64,000 bases of DNA. It comes from a virus. The number at the start of each line of letters is the position of its first letter. Within the stretch, counting starts at the first letter, position 1. The notes under the pieces were generated by a model. It was not told where the DNA came from, made no database searches, and worked only from the letters and a program-made list of their open reading frames with translations. Both the position numbers and the translations under genes were made by a program. The stretch spans positions 32,001 to 96,000 of IMG/VR virus record IMGVR_UViG_3300045988_142085; one strand, given 5' to 3'. Below are positions 2,759 through 43,350 of this stretch, piece by piece.

Positions 2759-3064
2759 CATTCTTGTGTTAACTTACTATTTCTAGTAAGATCGGACTCT
2801 ATCTTTAATTTTTTATTTAAAAATTATTTCCTGTTCAATGTATACATTGTTTACTTATATCTTATTAAGATACTTTCAATAGTCTCTGAACCTTTATCTT
2901 TGTCACCAAAGATACTTGGCTGCGGATTGTCCAATCTTAATCTTTTTTACTGTATCAAGATAATTACTCTTGCCCCATATTATATCACTATATATGGTTA
3001 GTAGATTAAGCTCTAAGGAGATCCCCGTCAATTTAGGAAATTTAAAGAGGGCATGAGTTTGTTC
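2759..3064 (-). mobile_element. group I-like intron (family B, ORF-less) in helicase gene
   Basis: Interrupts the motif V/VI junction. Contains GACTCTATC ... GATAGTCTCTGAAC (P7-like halves) shared with the recA and gyrB introns. Exon 1 ends in T; candidate 3' splice site after G of the ATG before AAT TGC. Confidence 0.6.
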
Positions 3065-4321
3065 ACCCTCTGCGCCAGCGTTAGAAGCAATTAGGACATT
3101 ACATTCTTGTGTATTATTAAATTTTTGTAATTGATTATATCGTTCTTCACTTGAGTGAGAGCCATTAATAAAGGCGATTTGAATTCCTTTAAAACGATTT
3201 TCTAAATACGTTTTAAGAATTCCTTGTGCTGTTCTATACTTACAGAACACAACAACTTTTTCACCTTCACTTAAAATACTCTCGACTAAGTCTAAGAACA
3301 ATTCAATCTTTTCAGATTTTTCGCCAGTCACATATTCTTGTGCCGCTTTACTATCGCTTAGTAATAATAACTCATCACTAATAGTAAGCTCTTGAGCAAA
3401 TGTTTGTTTCATTAAGATCATATTATCGATCTTATTAAATTCTTCATTCTTTCTAGCTTCTTCGATCGAATTAAACCGTTCAAGCATAACTTCTTGTTGT
3501 GCTTTAAGATCTTTGATTTCTTCGAGGAGCTTATCACTCATAGCTTGTACTTTTCTACCTAAAGAGCAAAATTTTTGAGCGACGACAAGTTTAGGTAAAT
3601 GACTGCTTACTTCTTCTTTCGTTCGGATAATTAAATTATGTTTAATTTTATCGGTTAATTCTCGTTCATTACGAGAACCGATAATATATCCGAGACTATT
3701 CTTTTTGACATATTGTTTATCGAATTTATTTATATTAGTAAACAAATCTTTTTTGATAAATCTATATATGCCAAATATATCTCGAGGATTTTTTTGAATC
3801 GGAGTTGCTGTTGCTCCGAAAGTATACTTTATATTATTAAATTTATATAGGCTTTTACTTCGTTTGGCTTGATAGCTTTTTACATATTGTACTTCGTCGG
3901 CAAAAATATATTCTAATTTCATTGCCAACAAACGTTCTCGAACTTTTTCGTCGTTAAGCGTTTCATAGTTACAAATAAGTAAATCGCCAACAAACTGATT
4001 ATCGAAGTTTTTCTTAGCCTTTGCTGAAGTTTCTAAAATGCTCGGAATCAGATCACTAAACTTCTGAACTTCATGGAACCATTGAACTTTTAAACTACTT
4101 TTAACTACGATTAATCCTGGACCTTTTATTTTCTTACGGTCTAAAAGTTCTAGATAAAGATCGATCGCTATTAAAGTTTTGCCAGCCCCGCAGCTTGCGA
4201 CGATTAAGCTACCTTCATCAATATCGAGAAGTTCTTTTACGGCTGTCTTTTGATAATTATAGAGTTCATATTTACATTTACCGATACCTTCGATGCTAAA
4301 ATTCGGACAATATAATAGCAA
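3065..4321 (-). CDS. SF2 helicase, exon 1 (Walker A GAGKT, DEAD-like motifs)
   Basis: SCGAGKTLIAI, FADEVQ, NVLIASNAGAEG. The ORF-track tail EQTHALF...KYLW is intron read-through. The first canonical start is TTG at 4321; the frame stays open about 75 codons upstream. Confidence 0.7.
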
Positions 4322-20347: not shown

Positions 20348-20692
20348 TCAGATAGTTATTATCGCTGAGCTTTTTATCTCAGCCTCTGGAGATTTCTCTC
20401 ATTTTCATCGACTAGTCAGTTCTAGTCCAGCTTAGCGTACCTTTTCATCTCTTCCTAAATAGGACAAAAGTCTAAACAAGTGATGGGGCCTCTTGGAGAT
20501 ATTATATTCTTTATTTAAATAAAGGTTCAATCTCTACGCGTTGCGCCTGTTAATAATTTTAACTATTAACTTCGGTCTCTGATTAGCATATGTTTTTACA
20601 CTTAGCCTTCCAGTTTAATTCCCCATTAATAATCTAAGATCTTCGTTTAGAAGTTGATCTTAGACGGCAATAAATTTTTATAAAATTTCTTT
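20348..20692 (-). mobile_element. group I-like intron (family A, ORF-less) splitting the Walker A codons of uvrD
   Basis: Exon 1 ends ...GGA TCT GGT (GAGSG); exon 2 begins AAA ACT (KT). Intron ends CUG (omega G). Shares GGAAGGCUAAG...AUAUGCUAAUC...GCGCAACGCGUAGAGAUUGAACC core with the clpX, AAA and stop-codon introns. Confidence 0.7.
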
Positions 20693-22549: not shown

Positions 22550-24061
22550 CAAATGTTATTAACCTGTATATTTTTACATACAGCTCTGGAGGTTTTCCTC
22601 ATTTTCATCGATTAGTTAATTCTAATCCAGTTTAGCGTAACTTTTCACCTTAATTAAGATTCATAGGGTTGGGGCCTCTTGGTAGGATTATATCTTTTCA
22701 CCTACTACGCGTTGCGGCTGGCTTAACTTTGTTAAGCCTTCACCTCTGATTAGCATATTGTATATTAATACAACTTAGCCTTCCAGATTTTTTCCCCAAA
22801 GCTAGTCATCATCTTCTGAATCTGTTGATGACGACACGGCTATGCTATTTACAAATTGTCCTTTTTGATTTCTCATCCAAGGATGTTCTTTTTGATGGCA
22901 TTCTGTACATAATGAAAGACCATTTTTAAGATCATTAAATTCTATACTTTTAACAATGTCATCTAAATTATTATTATATTTTTGTACTATGCTATAAAGT
23001 TGTTCGATATGATGAACTATTATATCGGATCGTGATCCACATTTTTGACATGTATAATTGTCTCTTTTTAAACAAGAATTTTTCCAAATTTCATATTCTG
23101 TAGTGCTTCTTAAATAATGAGCAACTTCTGTATATGTTTCTTTTTCTTTATGTAAATATAATTTTTTATGCTCGTTACAACAAAAATGTTTTTTATGATT
23201 TTTAAATTTAGATTCTATTATTTCATATTTTTTATTACAATAATCACAAGAAACTTCAACACGTTTTTTTCGTGCCTCATGTGAACATTTACTAGAACAA
23301 TAGATATGTTTATTTTTTCCTTCAAAAAAATTTTTTAATGCGCCAATTGGCTTATTTATTTTTTCTCCGCAGAAATCACATTTTAATTCTTCTATTGTTT
23401 TTTTATTTTTTTCTTTTATATCTATTGCGTTATGATGCATACATTCTATTGAACAATATGATATATTTTGATTTCTTTTAGTTTGTTTTTTTACATAACT
23501 ATTTGGTAATTTAAATTTTTTTTGACAAAATTTACATGTAAACTCTGTAAAATTACCACGTATATCATTTTCTTTGTTGTAAATTTTGCAACATTCAGAA
23601 GAGCAGAAATAATGCTTTTTATTTTTTAATTTTTGCTGAACCTTAAATTCTTTTCCGCAACAATCACATTTTACATTTAATTGATTGCGCCCCCAATGTT
23701 TATCTTTACACTCTCGGGAACAAAATTTTATAGGTTGATTTTTTTTATTAGCATTTTTAATTTCTCGTTCACTTCTTTGAAACATATTACCACATTCAAG
23801 ACAAATATAATCATGATATACAATATTTTTATGCGCGTATTCATGCATACATTTCTTTGAACAAAATTGTGGTTCAAAATTTGGATTTTTTCTTTTTTGA
23901 AAATCAACTTCACATTTTCTTCTTTTAAAATCAGACATGCAGTTCTTGCATGCATAGTACAACCATATATTTTCTTTATTTTTCATAATTATCTCCTGTT
24001 AATATTCAGTATACATCTATATATTACAGGAGTTTCTTCAATTTGTAAATTTTAAAATTTA
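22550..24061 (-). mobile_element. group I-like intron (family A) carrying an HNH homing-endonuclease ORF, inserted after the Walker B region of the AAA ATPase gene
   Basis: Exon 1 ends GGC GGT directly before a TAA. The 3' 250 nt (22550-22800) is near-identical in architecture to the uvrD intron. HE ORF has its own AGGAG RBS 72 nt into the intron. Confidence 0.7.
22802..23986 (-). CDS. intron-encoded HNH endonuclease with N-terminal array of about 10 CxxC...CxxC zinc-ribbon modules
   Basis: C-terminal CQKCGSRSDIIVHHIEQL...SLCTECHQKEHPW (HNH). Repeated C-x2-C-x(12-20)-[CH]-x(2-4)-[CH] modules upstream. Confidence 0.7.
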   Translation of the reverse strand: MKNKENIWLYYACKNCMSDFKRRKCEVDFQKRKNPNFEPQFCSKKCMHEYAHKNIVYHDYICLECGNMFQRSEREIKNANKKNQPIKFCSRECKDKHWGRNQLNVKCDCCGKEFKVQQKLKNKKHYFCSSECCKIYNKENDIRGNFTEFTCKFCQKKFKLPNSYVKKQTKRNQNISYCSIECMHHNAIDIKEKNKKTIEELKCDFCGEKINKPIGALKNFFEGKNKHIYCSSKCSHEARKKRVEVSCDYCNKKYEIIESKFKNHKKHFCCNEHKKLYLHKEKETYTEVAHYLRSTTEYEIWKNSCLKRDNYTCQKCGSRSDIIVHHIEQLYSIVQKYNNNLDDIVKSIEFNDLKNGLSLCTECHQKEHPWMRNQKGQFVNSIAVSSSTDSEDDD

Positions 24062-30438: not shown

Positions 30439-30652
30439 CCTTTATACCCTCGGTTTCCCGATATTTATTAGGGGAGTAGACTATATCATCATCTTAATTA
30501 AGATGTTCTGCGCTTCCGTTACGAATGTAACGTACTCCTTTCGGATAGTCGTTGGGGCGCAATTAAGCTGCCTGCTGATTACCTCGATGGGCTTCCCAGC
30601 ATATCACAGAATTTGCATATAATTATCACTAATTATAGGGGCAAAATTAATT
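30439..30652 (-). mobile_element. group I-like intron (family B, about 214 nt), recA intron 1, in Walker A codons
   Basis: Exon 1 ends ...GAC TCG GGT (ADSG); exon 2 begins AAA ACT AGT (KTS). Intron ends ...AAAGG. Contains CGACUAUCCGAAAGGAGUA ... GAUAUAGUCUACUCC (P7-like). Confidence 0.65.
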
Positions 30653-30922
30653 ACCCGAGTCTGCAACGCCAGCGATAGTCGTAATTTTCCCAATCGGAAA
30701 ACCACCGCCAGTTGCTGCATTAAAGTTAACAGATGGTGTCGGAATAAATCGAATATTAAGCTGTTCCTGAACTTTAGGATCACTTAATCGACCGACAACC
30801 ATGTTGTTCTTTTTCTTAGCCAAGTTAGCCATTACAAGATCTAATCGCTTACGTCTTTCGACGTCAGTTAAGACTTGAGAATTGCTAGCTTCGACAATTG
30901 GTTCAGCTTTCTTTCTTGCCAC
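30653..30922 (-). CDS. recA: RecA/UvsX-like recombinase, exon 1 (N-terminus to GVADSG of P-loop)
   Basis: ...NAATGGGFPIGKITTIAGVADSG equals RecA LG.GGLPRGRIVEIYGPESSG. Confidence 0.7.
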
Positions 30923-31990: not shown

Positions 31991-33422
31991 CTATCAATGT
32001 TAAACGCTTATCGTTTTTAAAATATTTTTTAAGAACATTTTGGAGCTCACGTTTAACCTCTTCTAAAATAGAAGTGCTATTTTTTAGAATACCTTTAATT
32101 TCTTTATTACGAGCTTCCAGCTCTGCGATCTTAGTATCGTAATCTCGTTGACTTAACTTAGTAAAGTCATTGATTTTCATACCAAGAATATAATCGGCCG
32201 CTTCTTCGCTTATACTAAGAAGCTTCATTAATTCACTTTTAGGTTCGTCGCTAGTTTTAATTAGTTCTAAAATCTTAGCACTATTAGCGATCGCCAATTT
32301 AATATTGTTGTATCTAAATAATAGTTTATTATTTTTATTTAACTCTAATGTTAATTTATTCTTAACAATATTATGATAATGAATTAATAGCTTCTTAACA
32401 ATAGAAACTAATGGCATATGCTCGATAACTTTATTATTATAAATAATAGTAAAGATACTGTTAAAGCTATCTTCTAATTTAGTCTTTTTAAAAACTTGTT
32501 TAATTAAGTCATCGACAGATTGACCACGTGCTGGTTTAATACTAATATTAAGAACGCCTTTTGCCGAGAAATTTTTAAACTCTCCACAAAGTTTATTTTC
32601 TCTTAATTTTTTTAAACCAGACATGATAACACTAACATTAGTTGTGTATGGTATTGATGTAAATACTAATTCTTTTTTATTTTTAATTGTATATTGGCCA
32701 CGGATAACGAACTTACCTTTGCCATTTTCATATACGGATTCTATATCGTCAGGATTCATAATAATCCCTTCGGTCGGGAAATCTGGTCCTTTGATATACT
32801 TCATTAAGAATTTAGTATTAATATCTTTACCTTTGTTAACCTGATCGATAGTCTTAATTAAGGCCGTAATGACTTCTGTCGCATTATGAGACGGAATCAT
32901 AGAGCTTACACCAGCAGCAATACCGTTAGTATAGTTACACAAAATATTCGGGAAAAATCCTCCTAAATATTTTGGTTCTAATCCTTCGTTGTCATACGTT
33001 GGCATCCATGGTACCGTAGCTTCATTAGTGTCTCCTAGGAGCAGATCTCCAGTCTTACTAAGTCTACTCTCGACGTACCTCATGGCTGCAGGTGGATCAT
33101 TTTCTATACTGCCAAAATTGCCACTACCATCTCCTAATGGATATCTGGCAGAAAATGTCGCCGTCATATTAACGAGAGCGCCATAAGGACCATCTAAGCT
33201 ATGTGGATGATATTGGCCGACAGTATCGCCGATAACTTTAGCAGCTTTTTTAAACGGTTTATTGTTATTTAAACCTAAATTGTTCATCGACAATAATACA
33301 CGTCGTTGAACTGGTTTTAAGCCGTCATTAAGTAACGGGATAGCTCGCTCGTATACAATGTGATTAGCATATTTACTAAAATTTTTAACGAGCAAGTCGC
33401 TTAATTCAATTTCAATTTCCAT
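31965..33422 (-). CDS. type II DNA topoisomerase, A-type (GyrA/ParC/T4 gp52-like) subunit
   Basis: NDGLKPVQRRVLLSMNNLGL...GQYHPHSLDGPYGALVNMTATFSARYPLGDGSGNFGS. Confidence 0.8.
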   Translation of the reverse strand: MEIEIELSDLLVKNFSKYANHIVYERAIPLLNDGLKPVQRRVLLSMNNLGLNNNKPFKKAAKVIGDTVGQYHPHSLDGPYGALVNMTATFSARYPLGDGSGNFGSIENDPPAAMRYVESRLSKTGDLLLGDTNEATVPWMPTYDNEGLEPKYLGGFFPNILCNYTNGIAAGVSSMIPSHNATEVITALIKTIDQVNKGKDINTKFLMKYIKGPDFPTEGIIMNPDDIESVYENGKGKFVIRGQYTIKNKKELVFTSIPYTTNVSVIMSGLKKLRENKLCGEFKNFSAKGVLNISIKPARGQSVDDLIKQVFKKTKLEDSFNSIFTIIYNNKVIEHMPLVSIVKKLLIHYHNIVKNKLTLELNKNNKLLFRYNNIKLAIANSAKILELIKTSDEPKSELMKLLSISEEAADYILGMKINDFTKLSQRDYDTKIAELEARNKEIKGILKNSTSILEEVKRELQNVLKKYFKNDKRLTLIGEPDDKSK

Positions 33423-37503: not shown

Positions 37504-37804
37504 CAAAATCTTCAATAAAGAACGCTACTTCTTTATCAGTTCTCTTATGAACTTCTTTATGTTTCCATAAAGTTGAGACTATATCTTCTTAGACTTCCAC
37601 TTCGAGCACCAATAACTTGTGCCCTACTCCCTTACGGGATAGTCGTTGAACTTTATATATATACTTTTTAATATATATCTTAGCTGCTGATTACCCGCCC
37701 ATACGGGCTTTCCAGCAATTCAAAAGTTTTTACAACGGCATTTATTTACCGTTTAAGCCACCAGTAGCAGAGACCTGTCCGCTAAGTGAAACGAATTTTC
37801 CTCC
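37504..37804 (-). mobile_element. group I-like intron (family B, ORF-less), gyrB intron 1
   Basis: Exon 1 ends ...TTG CAT GCT (U). Intron ends ...GAUUUUG (omega G). Exon 2 is GTT GGG AGT, restoring SLHAVGSSCVNAVS, which matches [14 protein letters not shown]. Core UUGCUGGAAAGCCC...CGACUAUCCCGUAAGGGAGUA...GAUAUAGUCUCAAC. Confidence 0.7.
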
Positions 37805-39916: not shown

Positions 39917-40728
39917 TTACTTTGCCTCCTTATTTAAATAATATGAATATTTATTATTAACATCTTCCGAAGTAATACGAATTTCTTTCGTATTCTCATC
40001 GATGTCGAATAATTTATCGTCGACTAAACCTTGTACGACGCTTTTAAGTGCACGAGCACCTGTTTTTCGATCGTAGGCAAGTTTAGCAATAGTATCGACA
40101 GTATCGTCATCGAAAGTAATTTCGATATCATACATGCCGATCAATTCTTTAATTTGTTTAAAGATTGCGTGTTTTGGAGTCGTTAAAATTTGTTTTAAGT
40201 CTTCCACACTCAATTCTTTAAGCGGGCAAATTACTGGTAATCGACCTAATAATTCTGGAATAATACCAAAGTTATCGAGATCTTCAGGTAAGATATAATC
40301 GATTACGTCGTTATACTTAGATTTTTCTTCCAATACGTCTTTAGATGCTTCACTAGAGAAACCGAGGCCCGTATCTAAATCTTTATTTAACCTTGCCGCA
40401 ATCTTCTTTTCAATACCGGTAAATGCACCACCACAAATAAATAAAATATTAGTAGTATCAATTTCAACAGTAGGAGATGACATAGCAAATCCACCTTGTT
40501 GATCGTTAGACTTAATAGCGACTTTGCCGCCTTCAACGAGTTTTAATAACTCATATTGTACGTCACGACCACCGATATCACTACCTTGAGAGCCAGCATT
40601 TTTAGGATCTCGAGCAGCAATTTTATCGATTTCATCGATATAGACAATACCTTGTTGAGTTCGTTCGACATCGTTACCGGCTTCACGGTATAGTTTGGCT
40701 AAGATGCTATTAACGTCTTCACCAACGA
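39917..40728 (-). CDS. clpX: ClpX ATPase, exon 3
   Basis: FVGEDVNSILAKLYREAGNDVERTQQGIVYIDEIDKIA...ILFICGGAF...GRLPVICPLKEL...RKTGARALKSVV equals the ClpX core. Confidence 0.75.
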
Positions 40729-41967
40729 CAATTTGTTACCCTATAGGCTTTTTATCCTATAGCTCTTACAGTTACCTGTAAGTTCAGCGTACATTTTTTC
40801 AGTAAAAATATTATACAAACTGAAGTGATCACTCTTGGGAATATTTTATTCTTATCATTAAGGTTCAATTCCTACGCGTTACGGTGTCAAAAGCCTTTTA
40901 AAACTTTTGATTACCTCGGTATTTTCCACATGGGTGCTTCACCGATTTTGATCACTTTAATTACTCTGACTTATTTGTACTTTCATCAGAGAGGGCTCGT
41001 TTTAAAGATAAATATCTTTTCATTTTTCTATCGAGAAAAATAGAAGCATTAGAATATAAATAATCATAAAAAGATAATGTTAAATTTTTCTTATAAAGAA
41101 CTAATTTTTTATATGTGATATAATCATCTATTTTAAATTCAAAATTTGACAGTATTTGATTAATTGATTCTGCTAATAAAGAAGAACCAACAACTATAAC
41201 TGTTTGAATTTTTTTTATATTTTTAGTGATATATCCATTTCCATCAAAATATCCACGGATAAAACTTGAAATAAGATTTTCTTTTATATTTGGCATAAAA
41301 GCATTTTCTGTTTTATTATAAACTACACCTAATTTAAATAAATCTTCTACTAATTCTTTTGACACAATAGATACAACAGATGTTTTTCTATTTTTTCTAT
41401 GCTTAATTTCTAAATTTTTGGCGCCAATATCATTAATAAATTTATTTAAATGGTTATCATCAACAGAGCTTAACTCAATTGATAATCTATTTTTATAAAC
41501 ATTACCATCAGCCATAATAAAACCCAGCCAATATGCTTGTTTTTCTGACTCTATTTCCTTAAAAAAACTTTTATCAAACGTTACATTAGGTCTTTTATAA
41601 GTAAATCTCATATTAACATTTTTCTTTTTTAAGTATGCTGAAAATGATTTAACAGAAATTTTTAATTGTTCTGCTACTTTATACATAGGAATATTTTCTT
41701 CTACATATAGTCTTAATCCTTCAACATATCTAGGATCTTCTATTTCAAAATGGACATTTTTTTTAATTTCTATTCCATTTCGTTTAAAATATCTTCTTAA
41801 AGAACCTACATCTACATTATATTTTTTTGCTAAAGTAGAAGTAGATACTCCTTTATTTTCAGTATATTCTTTTATTGCTTTTTTATATTTATCTTCATTT
41901 TTATATCGTGTCATATTATGACCCTCCTTATGGTCATAATTATATTACACAATATATTTGTCTGTCA
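40729..41967 (-). mobile_element. group I-like intron (family A) with LAGLIDADG homing-endonuclease ORF, clpX intron 2
   Basis: Exon 2 ends ...TCG GGG T. Intron ends CAAAUUG (omega G). 3' part contains ACGCGUAGGAAUUGAACCUUAAUGAUAAGAAUAAAAUAUUCCCAAGAG (family A core). HE ORF has an AAGGAGGG RBS 50 nt into the intron. Confidence 0.65.
40961..41914 (-). CDS. intron-encoded double-motif LAGLIDADG homing endonuclease with N-terminal HTH-like repeats
   Basis: YWLGFIMADGNV and IRGYFDGNGYI motifs. Confidence 0.75.
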   Translation of the reverse strand: MTRYKNEDKYKKAIKEYTENKGVSTSTLAKKYNVDVGSLRRYFKRNGIEIKKNVHFEIEDPRYVEGLRLYVEENIPMYKVAEQLKISVKSFSAYLKKKNVNMRFTYKRPNVTFDKSFFKEIESEKQAYWLGFIMADGNVYKNRLSIELSSVDDNHLNKFINDIGAKNLEIKHRKNRKTSVVSIVSKELVEDLFKLGVVYNKTENAFMPNIKENLISSFIRGYFDGNGYITKNIKKIQTVIVVGSSLLAESINQILSNFEFKIDDYITYKKLVLYKKNLTLSFYDYLYSNASIFLDRKMKRYLSLKRALSDESTNKSE

Positions 41968-42052
41968 ACCCCGATTTGGTGAGACTACTTGCATCGACAA
42001 TAACACATGGTCGACCAAGATATTTTGCTAATTGTTTAATTAAGAATGTTTT
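41968..42052 (-). CDS. clpX: ClpX, exon 2 (28 codons: KTFLIKQLAKYLGRPCVIVDASSLTKSG)
   Basis: Equals ClpX [30 protein letters not shown]. No start codon, so not in the ORF track. Confidence 0.65.
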
Positions 42053-42350
42053 CAGTTGTGTTATCGTAAAAGTTTTTTATCTTCTACTTCTTATAGTTTC
42101 CTATAAGCTCAGCATACCTTTTTAGCGTATATTTTTTTACCAAACGCTAGAGCGGCCTCGTGGTAGAATTATATTCTTATTTTAAAAATAAGGTTCATCT
42201 ACTATGCGTTGCCCCTGACTAGAATATTATTTCTAGCCTTCGGTTCAGATTAGCATATGCACTTTATGCACTTAGCCTTCCTGCTTAATTCCGCTCAAAT
42301 AATCCAGAAGTTCATGGTTTTTTCTTCTAGAACGGCAAACTTTTACAGCC
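42053..42350 (-). mobile_element. group I-like intron (family A, ORF-less), clpX intron 1, in Walker A codons
   Basis: Exon 1 ends ...TGC GGT (GSSGCG). Intron is GGCUGUAAAAGUUUGCCG...AACACAACUG (omega G). Exon 2 begins AAA ACA (KT). Core GGAAGGCUAAG...GCAUAUGCUAAUC...UAGUCAGGGGCAACGCAUAGUAGAUGAACC. Confidence 0.75.
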
Positions 42351-42776
42351 ACCGCAACCCGAGGACCCCAGCATTAATATATTTGATTTCTCAACATCGA
42401 TTCCAACATCTTTTTTCTTAAACGCATTATATTCGAGAAGCTTAGTATGATTAGTAATCGCGACACTAAGAATTTTCTTAGCGTTATCCTGATTGATTAC
42501 ACTTTCATCCAAGTAGGCTTTAATTTCTTTAGGCTTAACATCAGACTTTTGAACTTTAGAAGATTTTTTCTTTTTAGGTTTTTCATCGTCTTCACCATCT
42601 AAAGATAAGCCTAAGATGTCATCGATATCAAAATCACCTTCATCGTCTTGAACTTGAGATGCCATTTTCATGACGCATTCTTGACAAATAGCGATATTTT
42701 TATTAACGGAAGACTGAAAAGTAATATTGTGACTTTTTTGATCGTCGATATCTTTACCGCAATAACTACATTTCAT
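42351..42776 (-). CDS. clpX: ClpX, exon 1 (zinc-binding domain to GSSGCG of P-loop)
   Basis: CSYCGK...CQEC zinc-binding domain. KEIKAYLDESVINQDNAKKILSVAITNH...SNILMLGSSGCG. Confidence 0.75.
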
Positions 42777-42777
42777 A

Positions 42778-43350
42778 TTACTTTTTCTCCTTCGCTTTAA
42801 TGATTTCGTCGATAAGACCCATATCGAGAGCCTGTTGAGCTTCTAGATAATTATCGCGTTCACATGCTTCATGAATTTGTTCGTAGGTAATTTTACCGTT
42901 AGATTTCTCAGCATATTTACGTTCCAACTTTTCGCGTAAGCGCTCAATATGTTTAGCGACAATCTGAATATCGGTCTGTTGACCTTGTACACCAGTTAAT
43001 GGCTGATGAATCATAACTTCGGTGTTTTCGAGAACACTTCGTTTGTCGCCCATACTCAATAAAAAGCTAGCCATACTAGCACACATGCCCATACCGACAG
43101 TATGAACTGGACAATTAATGGTACGCATAGTATCGTAAATTGCCATACCGGCCGTAATACTGCCACCAGGACTATTAATATATAGTTTAATAGGCTTACG
43201 ACTACTTTCGTTCGCTAAATATAACATTGCAGGAACGACAAAGTTAGCTAATTCGTCATTAATTTGGCCCGTGATAAATAACACACGGTCTTCTAAAAGT
43301 TTATCGAAAAGGTTTACGCGAACACCTTCAGAATCTTTAATTACGGACAC
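42778..43350 (-). CDS. clpP: ClpP protease subunit
   Basis: VLFITGQINDELANFVVPAMLYL...IKLYINSPGGSITAGMAIYDTM...HTVGMGMCASMASFLL...MIHQP. Confidence 0.85.
   Translation of the reverse strand: MSVIKDSEGVRVNLFDKLLEDRVLFITGQINDELANFVVPAMLYLANESSRKPIKLYINSPGGSITAGMAIYDTMRTINCPVHTVGMGMCASMASFLLSMGDKRSVLENTEVMIHQPLTGVQGQQTDIQIVAKHIERLREKLERKYAEKSNGKITYEQIHEACERDNYLEAQQALDMGLIDEIIKAKEKK

Follow-up and report, generated by a model that had tools for sequence, protein, structure and literature searches.

That mobile group I introns occupy conserved positions in the genes of phages is well established, and a single phage gene may contain several group I introns, as in Twort (PMC3073962). ClpX and ClpP encoded by phages have also been reported already, in jumbo phages (PMC6102473, PMC7824862). 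In the present study we analysed a window of 64,000 nucleotides (nt), positions 32,001 to 96,000 of the IMG/VR record IMGVR_UViG_3300045988_142085, which is part of an uncultured phage of ~236 kilobases (kb) and contains a clpP gene followed by a clpX gene that is interrupted twice. We propose, as the very probable reading, that two homologous mobile group I introns invaded clpX, that splicing restores a ClpX of 440 amino acids (aa), and that a LAGLIDADG endonuclease encoded by intron 2 drives homing. The proposal is built on computational observations, namely the exon structure and its junctions, the presence or absence of the insertions among relatives, an RNA fold with covariation and the intact motifs of the endonuclease; self-splicing and homing, which are standard for such elements, would be expected here from the sequence.

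The three exons of clpX (Table 1), which lie together with clpP, both introns and the endonuclease open reading frame (ORF) on the minus strand, can be joined into one open frame of 440 codons. Exon 1 reads ...NILMLGSSGCG with T as its last base, ending inside Walker A, the P-loop, as the initial annotation had stated; read without splicing, its frame adds 7 unrelated codons and a stop. The second exon, a micro-exon that could be confirmed at 85 nt, spans from the KT of Walker A to the G of the pore-1 loop and carries one further base of the Phe codon, and the protein of exon 3 begins (F)VGEDVNSILAKLYREAG... and terminates at 39917. Site 1 breaks Walker A (GSSGCG|KT) and site 2 breaks the pore-1 loop (G|FVG; GYVG in E. 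coli), the predicted spliced sequences being ...GGTTGCGGT|AAAACATTC... and ...AAATCGGGGT|TCGTTGGTGAA... respectively. The joined protein exceeds the cut-offs of two NCBIfam ClpX equivalog models, NF003745 (398 bits vs 359) and TIGR00382 (372.3 vs 370.75), and only the spliced protein does so. Alignment to the best solved ClpX (E 6.5e-79) is gap-free at both junctions (...LGSSGCGKTFL... and ...LTKSGFVGEDV...), and the motifs CxxC...CxxC, GSSGCGKT, IVYIDEIDK, GFVG (with Tyr replaced by Phe) and LGF are found on it; no ClpX of a deposited phage reaches 45% identity to it (tblastn). In the public gene calls of the 236-kb source contig clpX appears as ORFs of 149 aa and 188 aa, and the micro-exon is omitted; the early warning that it would be an annotation trap was well founded.

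Table 1. Features of the clpP-clpX locus and further group I introns of the window (positions are those of the window; introns and regulatory elements are predictions).
Feature	Position	Strand	Description
clpP	43350-42778	minus	190 aa, GTG start; Pfam CLP_protease, E 1.5e-62
clpX exon 1	42776-42351	minus	426 nt (142 codons); N-domain (Cys4, zinc-binding), linker, Walker A up to GSSGCG
Intron 1	42350-42053	minus	298 nt, ORF-less; guide GCCGU 42336-42332; terminal G 42053
clpX exon 2 (micro-exon)	42052-41968	minus	85 nt (28 codons and 1 further base); KTFLIKQLAKYLGRPCVIVDASSLTKSG
Intron 2	41967-40729	minus	1239 nt; ORF placed in P1 loop; core ~41001-40729; guide AACGA|GCCCU 41001-40992
Promoter-like site and hairpin	41968-41905	minus	TTGACA-18-TATAAT at 41968-41939; -35 box straddles the 5' splice site
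LAGLIDADG homing endonuclease ORF	41914-40961	minus	317 aa; AAGGAGG upstream; in intron 2
clpX exon 3	40728-39917	minus	Pore-1 remainder (F)VGEDV, Walker B, LGF ClpP-docking loop, small AAA+ domain, stop
Third member of the intron family	20349-20692	minus	344 nt; splits UvrD/PcrA-type helicase in Walker A (GSG|KT); nhmmer E 1.7e-18
Rfam-detected group I introns	37555-37780, 30457-30662, 2773-3094	minus	65-94 bits

Among deposited phages, megablast gave no match for the clpP-clpX region and, for 24 kb of the window, only snippets of intron core; the closest isolated phages share only ~35% protein identity. As no close sequenced relative was found there, the comparison was moved to IMG/VR, which was scanned with the spliced ClpX; this yielded 35 close loci (labelled L) on contigs of up to 232 kb, onto which the protein was mapped back. 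Uninterrupted clpX genes occur in L008, L009 and L012 (98% aa identity), in L010 and L011 (91%) and in seven loci including L013 (~68%). An insertion at site 1 only is seen in L015, L016, L030-L034 and L036, one at site 2 only in L020-L023, L027, L035 and L038-L041, and both in L025, L028, L042, probably L037, and the window, the micro-exon being flanked by introns in the same way. Intron 1 is not present in L008, L009, L012 and L020-L023, and intron 2 is not present in L008-L019 and others. The clpX introns are polymorphic in the phage population, and the double interruption initially described, by insertions of 298 nt and 1239 nt, is that of sites which are empty in some of the relatives.

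The empty alleles also fix the junctions. They read ...GGN|AAR ACN... at site 1 and ...GGGT|TCGT... at site 2, and in the relatives with 98% identity the joins are exactly GGT|AAA and GGGT|TCGT, the latter being the junction anticipated from the window alone (GGG T|TC GTT). An example of a natural intron-less target is the L008 sequence AAAAGTGGGT|TCGTAGGCGAAG, and the L008-type target is AAAAGTGGGTTCGTAGGCGAAG. At the occupied sites the exon always ends in T and the insertion always in G, and 26 of 26 insertions end ...CTG or ...TTG. Exons of the window are 98-99% identical to the uninterrupted alleles, and synonymous differences from the empty alleles lie beside the occupied sites (TCACCAAATCGGGGT vs TAACAAAAAGTGGGT); such differences fit co-conversion during homing.

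We modelled the secondary structure of the insertions by hand and checked it by counting pairings and compensatory changes against slid control structures. A combined MAFFT alignment of the introns of both sites misaligned P4-P6, so that the sites were analysed separately. The model contains P1, P2-P7, P7.1 with a nested hairpin, the 3' strand of P3, P8, the 3' strand of P7, P9 and P9.1, ends with the terminal G, and includes both a P10 between the guide and the 3' exon and the P3/P7 pseudoknot. P1 consists in both introns of 5 base pairs (bp) with U·G at the splice site (UGCGGU/GCCGU in intron 1, CGGGGU/GCCCU in intron 2). For site 1 (alignment A1, n=11) 99.1% of the cells are paired and 12 pairs are compensatory, the slid controls giving 30-43% and 0-3 pairs; for site 2 (A2, n=15) the values are 99.4% and 11 pairs, against 33-43% and 0-3. 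In a wider alignment of the intron family (A3, n=38, 52% mean identity) 96.3% of the cells are paired, compensatory changes occur in 41 of 48 pairs and the covariation score is 0.705, compared with 0.08-0.15 in the slid controls; over the three alignments these controls reach 30-44% paired. When RNAalifold was applied to A3 with no structure supplied, it recovered P3, P4, P5, P6, P7.1, P8, P9 and P9.1, with 45 of 50 pairs compensatory. Within P7 one pair covaries (GC/AU) and four are invariant. In intron 2, P10 has 5 bp (AACGA with UCGUU), and in the 72% clade intron and exon have both changed, a compensatory replacement of GC by AU (ACGA/UCGU to ACAA/UUGU). The identification of both insertions as group I introns, homologous to each other, is thus strongly supported by covariation within this model. 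Other classes of element were discarded: for a group II intron 298 nt is too short, and neither a GUGYG 5' end nor a reverse transcriptase is present; an intein does not agree with the in-frame stops of the insertions, which are not translated through. For P4 of intron 1 the pairing AGCA/UGCU was dropped in favour of CAG/CUG, the former being broken in L028 and the family copy in a helicase gene (Table 1) seeming to covary with the latter.

These observations bear on a first alternative, that clpX is dead, the insertions being debris of mobile elements which is never removed and only fragments of the protein being made. The automatic gene calls do give fragments only, and Rfam detects no intron in clpX. 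The three exons, however, are in frame, keep all the ClpX motifs and maintain the high identity to uninterrupted alleles given above; the insertions retain a covarying ribozyme fold with guides that track the exon sequence, and the double-intron arrangement recurs in L025, L028, L042 and, probably, L037. We regard a dead gene as extremely unlikely.

The same structural data bear on whether the micro-exon is skipped, sometimes or always, through pairing of similar introns across it, so that the output of clpX would be regulated or abolished. Landthaler and Shub (1999, as cited in PMC3073962) reported skipping between similar group I introns in a phage Twort gene with three introns, and the clpX introns do share a homologous core. 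However, the guides differ (GCCGU vs GCCCU), each fitting its own exon, and if exon 1 (426 nt, phase 0) were joined directly to exon 3, whose first two bases complete a codon, the frame would shift and the KT of Walker A would be lost, making the skipped product useless. Skipping is in our view improbable.

Several points weigh against the proposal of two spliced, mobile introns. The Rfam group I model RF00028 matches nothing in the clpX introns, whether at its gathering threshold or with E relaxed to 10, and the group I assignment therefore rests on the structural model made here. In intron 1, P10 has only 3 bp with 79% of the cells paired, P4 and P5 have 3 bp each and are invariant across the site-1 set, and P4 is backed only by a by-eye comparison with the helicase copy (CAG/CUG vs CUG/CAG); the site-1 alleles of L015 and L032 have a P1 of 3 bp. 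In intron 2 the last ~40 nt of the endonuclease ORF overlap the guide and P2, and translation of the endonuclease could for this reason interfere with splicing. Overlaps of this kind, and tight control of the ORF, have been described for other group I introns (PMC3984707, PMC3073962). Splicing in vivo is itself a prediction. Finally, the ClpP encoded upstream falls below curated NCBIfam cut-offs, with 229.7 vs 249 for the subfamily model and 196.7 vs 308.6 for the equivalog.

The silence of RF00028 is shared by the whole family to which the clpX introns belong. The same model does detect three other introns of the window (Table 1) and gave no Intron_gpI match on 18 related loci, 11 of which are loci of further family copies. 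A single Rfam model does not cover the diversity of group I introns, phage variants being under-represented (PMC6125680, PMC11878797), and RF00028 omits the P7 pairing; it is a detection tool and not a defining property of these introns. The 3' 200 nt of introns 1 and 2 resemble each other and also sequences that split tape-measure and DNA-polymerase genes in phages of Staphylococcus, Clostridium, Clostridioides and Alicyclobacillus, where they usually lie just 3' of an endonuclease ORF; on these external homologues Rfam is silent as well. The conserved 3' pattern was found in at least 120 viral stretches of IMG/VR (L087-L206), nearly all of them significant by nhmmer, from which A3 was derived, and some loci hold two or three family copies (L087, L128).

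The ORF of intron 2 encodes in one chain two LAGLIDADG motifs, YWLGFIMADGNV and FIRGYFDGNGY, behind an N-terminal helix-turn-helix region, and the acidic catalytic residues are intact in both (GFIMADGN, GYFDGNG). A double-LAGLIDADG ORF with its own ribosome-binding site in a 1.24-kb intron had been noted initially, and both features hold. The protein matches Pfam LAGLIDADG_3 (two stretches, E 6.7e-11) and LAGLIDADG_WhiA, as well as PHROG 4645 (endonuclease, E 2e-49); a sequence search against solved structures returned nothing useful. The exact protein is present on the 236-kb metagenomic contig, and intact orthologues are found in L020, L023, L035, L037, L038 and L042. Forms of 278-284 nt lacking the ORF occupy the same site as the ORF-bearing ones, and the layout of site 2 runs from the 5' splice site through TGACA and then either ~5 nt or ~1 kb to the guide (A)ACGAGCCCU; it is by comparison with these short forms that the ORF was placed in the loop of P1.

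The promoter-like site ahead of the ORF matches the consensus at 12 of 12 positions, starts at the last exon base and is kept in the other ORF-bearing copies. The hairpin that follows it pairs the Shine-Dalgarno sequence of the endonuclease (-16.1 kcal/mol, z -3.7). Both elements may control the expression of the endonuclease, and by analogy with I-TevI the hairpin could limit its translation from read-through pre-mRNA. A weak Rfam match to cow-rumen-4 (41917-41963, minus strand; 29 bits, E 0.05) coincides with this hairpin. Weak Rfam matches of this kind (cow-rumen-4, a microRNA, a snoRNA) were set aside as due to chance or as reflecting the Shine-Dalgarno hairpin.

Site 1 would record the decay of such an element. 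In six relatives it holds forms of 1.5 kb with a related LAGLIDADG ORF of 381-386 codons, in four others 400-nt forms in which the ORF is deleted and the promoter-like leader kept, and in the window the shortest form, of 298 nt, from which the leader is gone too. By this comparison intron 1 probably descends from a form with a related LAGLIDADG gene of its own, which has since been lost.

The distribution of these ORFs also bears on whether the introns splice only when assisted by protein, the LAGLIDADG protein acting mainly as a maturase, or a host factor being needed, rather than homing being its function. Organellar LAGLIDADG proteins that double as maturases are known (PMC3073962), P4 and P5 of intron 1 are short, and the ORF-less intron 1 has a related ORF-bearing neighbour 85 nt away. 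Yet an ORF-less copy, at one site or the other, is the sole intron in L021, L022, L027, L030, L034 and L039-L041, whose clpX contains no LAGLIDADG gene, so that the intron RNA evidently persists without a protein encoded in cis; both acidic catalytic residues are intact, and a patchy presence among phages with 98% identity is what homing predicts. We consider splicing that depends on protein in this way very unlikely.

Thus, in the mechanism that we propose, the introns would have entered clpX at its two most conserved motifs, Walker A (GxxGxG|KT) and the pore-1 loop (G|FVG). In each of them the guide would pair with both exons: with the end of the upstream one in P1, where U·G marks the splice site, and with the beginning of the downstream one in P10. 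The P3-P9 core with its P3/P7 pseudoknot would then excise the intron and join the exons, leading to the 440-aa ClpX. The LAGLIDADG enzyme of intron 2 may in turn cut the intron-less clpX of co-infecting relatives, and repair of the break would copy intron 2 in along with nearby exon sequence. Endonuclease activity and homing are predicted here from the motifs and from the pattern of occupied sites.

The phage encodes, as judged from its sequence, a cellular-type ClpP peptidase directly followed by the ClpX unfoldase. The two genes had been described as overlapping; a single base in fact separates the clpP stop (TAA, 42780-42778) from the clpX start (ATG, 42776-42774). The operon as such gains comparative support, since clpP lies immediately upstream of clpX in all close relatives. 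ClpP aligns end to end, N-terminal region included, with solved ClpP structures (E 5.6e-52), its Ser/His/Asp motifs ASMAS, IHQP and RDNY match their catalytic positions, and its Pfam score is well above the gathering threshold (211 vs 20.2). The gene could instead encode a prohead maturation protease with the ClpP fold and no partnership with ClpX, as would agree with the 'head maturation protease' label of the best PHROG families and with the scores below the curated NCBIfam cut-offs. Against this, ClpP models give 230 bits and the ClpP-related head-maturation model 117, the alignment with cellular ClpP is full-length including the N-terminal region, the gene is placed in the replication module one base from clpX in a pairing kept in all relatives, and ClpX retains the LGF docking loop. 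A prohead protease is therefore an unlikely identity for this protein, and we keep to a ClpP that would act with the phage ClpX, a role suggested by the gene pair and its motifs. The surrounding region is a phage replication and nucleotide-metabolism module, with PHROG matches in the window to RNA ligase/kinase, helicases, topoisomerase II, SSB and HNH genes.

The clpP gene is itself interrupted in relatives of 68-75% identity, by 1.9-2.2 kb in L013 (3467-5650), L017, L032 and L033 and at a second position in L019, L029 and L031. Two ORFs were identified in the insert of L013, a tnpA of IS200/IS605 type (144 aa) and one resembling tnpB (369 aa), and the insert may accordingly be either an IStron or simply an inserted IS; no ribozyme was detected there by Rfam. 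The window itself contains further selfish elements, a transposase-like ORF (PHROG 506; 51780-52991, minus strand) and a free-standing HNH endonuclease ORF (22802-23986, minus strand).

A third copy of the family splits a UvrD/PcrA-type helicase gene of the window. The helicase exons are at 20788-20693 and 20348-18513, and the spliced N-terminus across the junction matches Pfam UvrD-helicase at E 1.9e-41; the context GGT|AAAAC and the guide GCCGU are the same as at clpX site 1. Counting the three introns detected by Rfam and the three of the family, there are at least six group I introns in the 64 kb of the window. The Rfam-detected intron at 37555-37780 sits in a topoisomerase II gene and is not present in L008. 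A family copy lies in the topoisomerase gene of relatives (L012 9459-9763, L026 3460-3716, L010 8833-9089, L011 10557-10813), and the corresponding site is unoccupied in the window, near 37783-37803. In L166, L119, L181, L113, L111 and L117 the 3' exons begin AAAAC... or GGTAAAAC... (KT or GKT) in other genes, a hint that such insertions recur at codons of Walker A. In L002 (Staphylococcus phage 6ec), L006 (Alicyclobacillus phage MMB025), L005, L003 and L004 a tape-measure or DNA polymerase gene is annotated as two coding sequences (CDSs) around an endonuclease gene, and the ribozyme core of the family sits just before the second CDS; these split genes of deposited phages look like ones that contain unannotated introns.

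We tentatively raise a broader idea, which we find possible though rather doubtful: the clpX introns would belong to a large group I clade undetected by Rfam, which is present in IMG/VR in at least 120 copies and often more than once in a phage. One lineage of this clade would repeatedly colonise the GGN|AAA AC(N) Walker A codons (G|KT) of unrelated ATPase genes, as in clpX and the UvrD helicase of the window and probably in genes of other viral contigs, by re-using the guide GCCGU. If true, a shared protein motif would serve as a portable homing site, and the intron would hop between genes as well as between genomes.

Because gene callers and Rfam miss these introns, a complete ClpX, and likewise a UvrD helicase, are recorded as fragments, and the family is also left unannotated in at least 120 viral contigs and in deposited phage genomes. 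Many annotations of phages would be corrected by a covariance model derived from our alignments. The clpX alleles with no intron, either one or both, and with or without the endonuclease gene, form a natural grid in phages with 98% identity in ClpX, in which homing, the loss of endonucleases and the decay of introns could usefully be studied among co-infecting phages.

When the locus is compared with known systems, the new elements are modest: the host gene, insertion at Walker A and the pore loop, an ORF in the P1 loop, a family invisible to the detector and a well-sampled series of presence and absence. The arrangement had been called unusual at the outset, which stands as to clpX, our literature search having found no report linking this gene with a group I intron, and has to be tempered as to a phage ClpXP or a phage gene with several introns. 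The jumbo phages that carry cellular-type Clp components (Agrobacterium phage Atu_ph07, Bacillus phage G with gp258, PA5oct and the Lak phages) are likewise large, and in Atu_ph07 clpX is likewise near topoisomerase genes (PMC6102473); in the present phage, by contrast, clpX is interrupted and is tightly paired with clpP. IStrons combine a group I intron with IS200/IS605, the clpP insert of the relatives has tnpA and tnpB-like ORFs, and some blastn matches of the intron family lie in C. difficile phages, whereas the clpX introns carry no transposase. Subgroup IA introns are marked by additional helices, P7.1/P7.1a or P7.2, which follow P7 and precede the 3' strand of P3, and the clpX introns share a strongly covarying P7.1 with a nested hairpin, and P9.1; the P7.1 region suggests subgroup IA, as far as a reading of the helix layout goes, and phage introns resembling IA1 and IA3 were reported for the first time in 2025 (PMC11878797). 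The closest likeness is to the mobile introns of T4 td with I-TevI, of the SPO1 and Bastille DNA polymerase genes and of Twort, which are likewise found at the most conserved codons of a gene of essential type (PMC3984707, PMC3073962). In these phages as well, the endonuclease ORF lies in a peripheral loop and runs into core helices, its Shine-Dalgarno sequence is held in a hairpin, ORF-less and ORF-bearing variants coexist, and one gene may have several similar introns with short exons between them. The present locus differs from them in that the host gene is clpX, the ORF is placed in the P1 loop with the 5' splice site ~1 kb from the guide, the endonuclease is of the LAGLIDADG type where GIY-YIG or HNH enzymes are usual in phages, and the RNA belongs to a family that RF00028 does not recognise.

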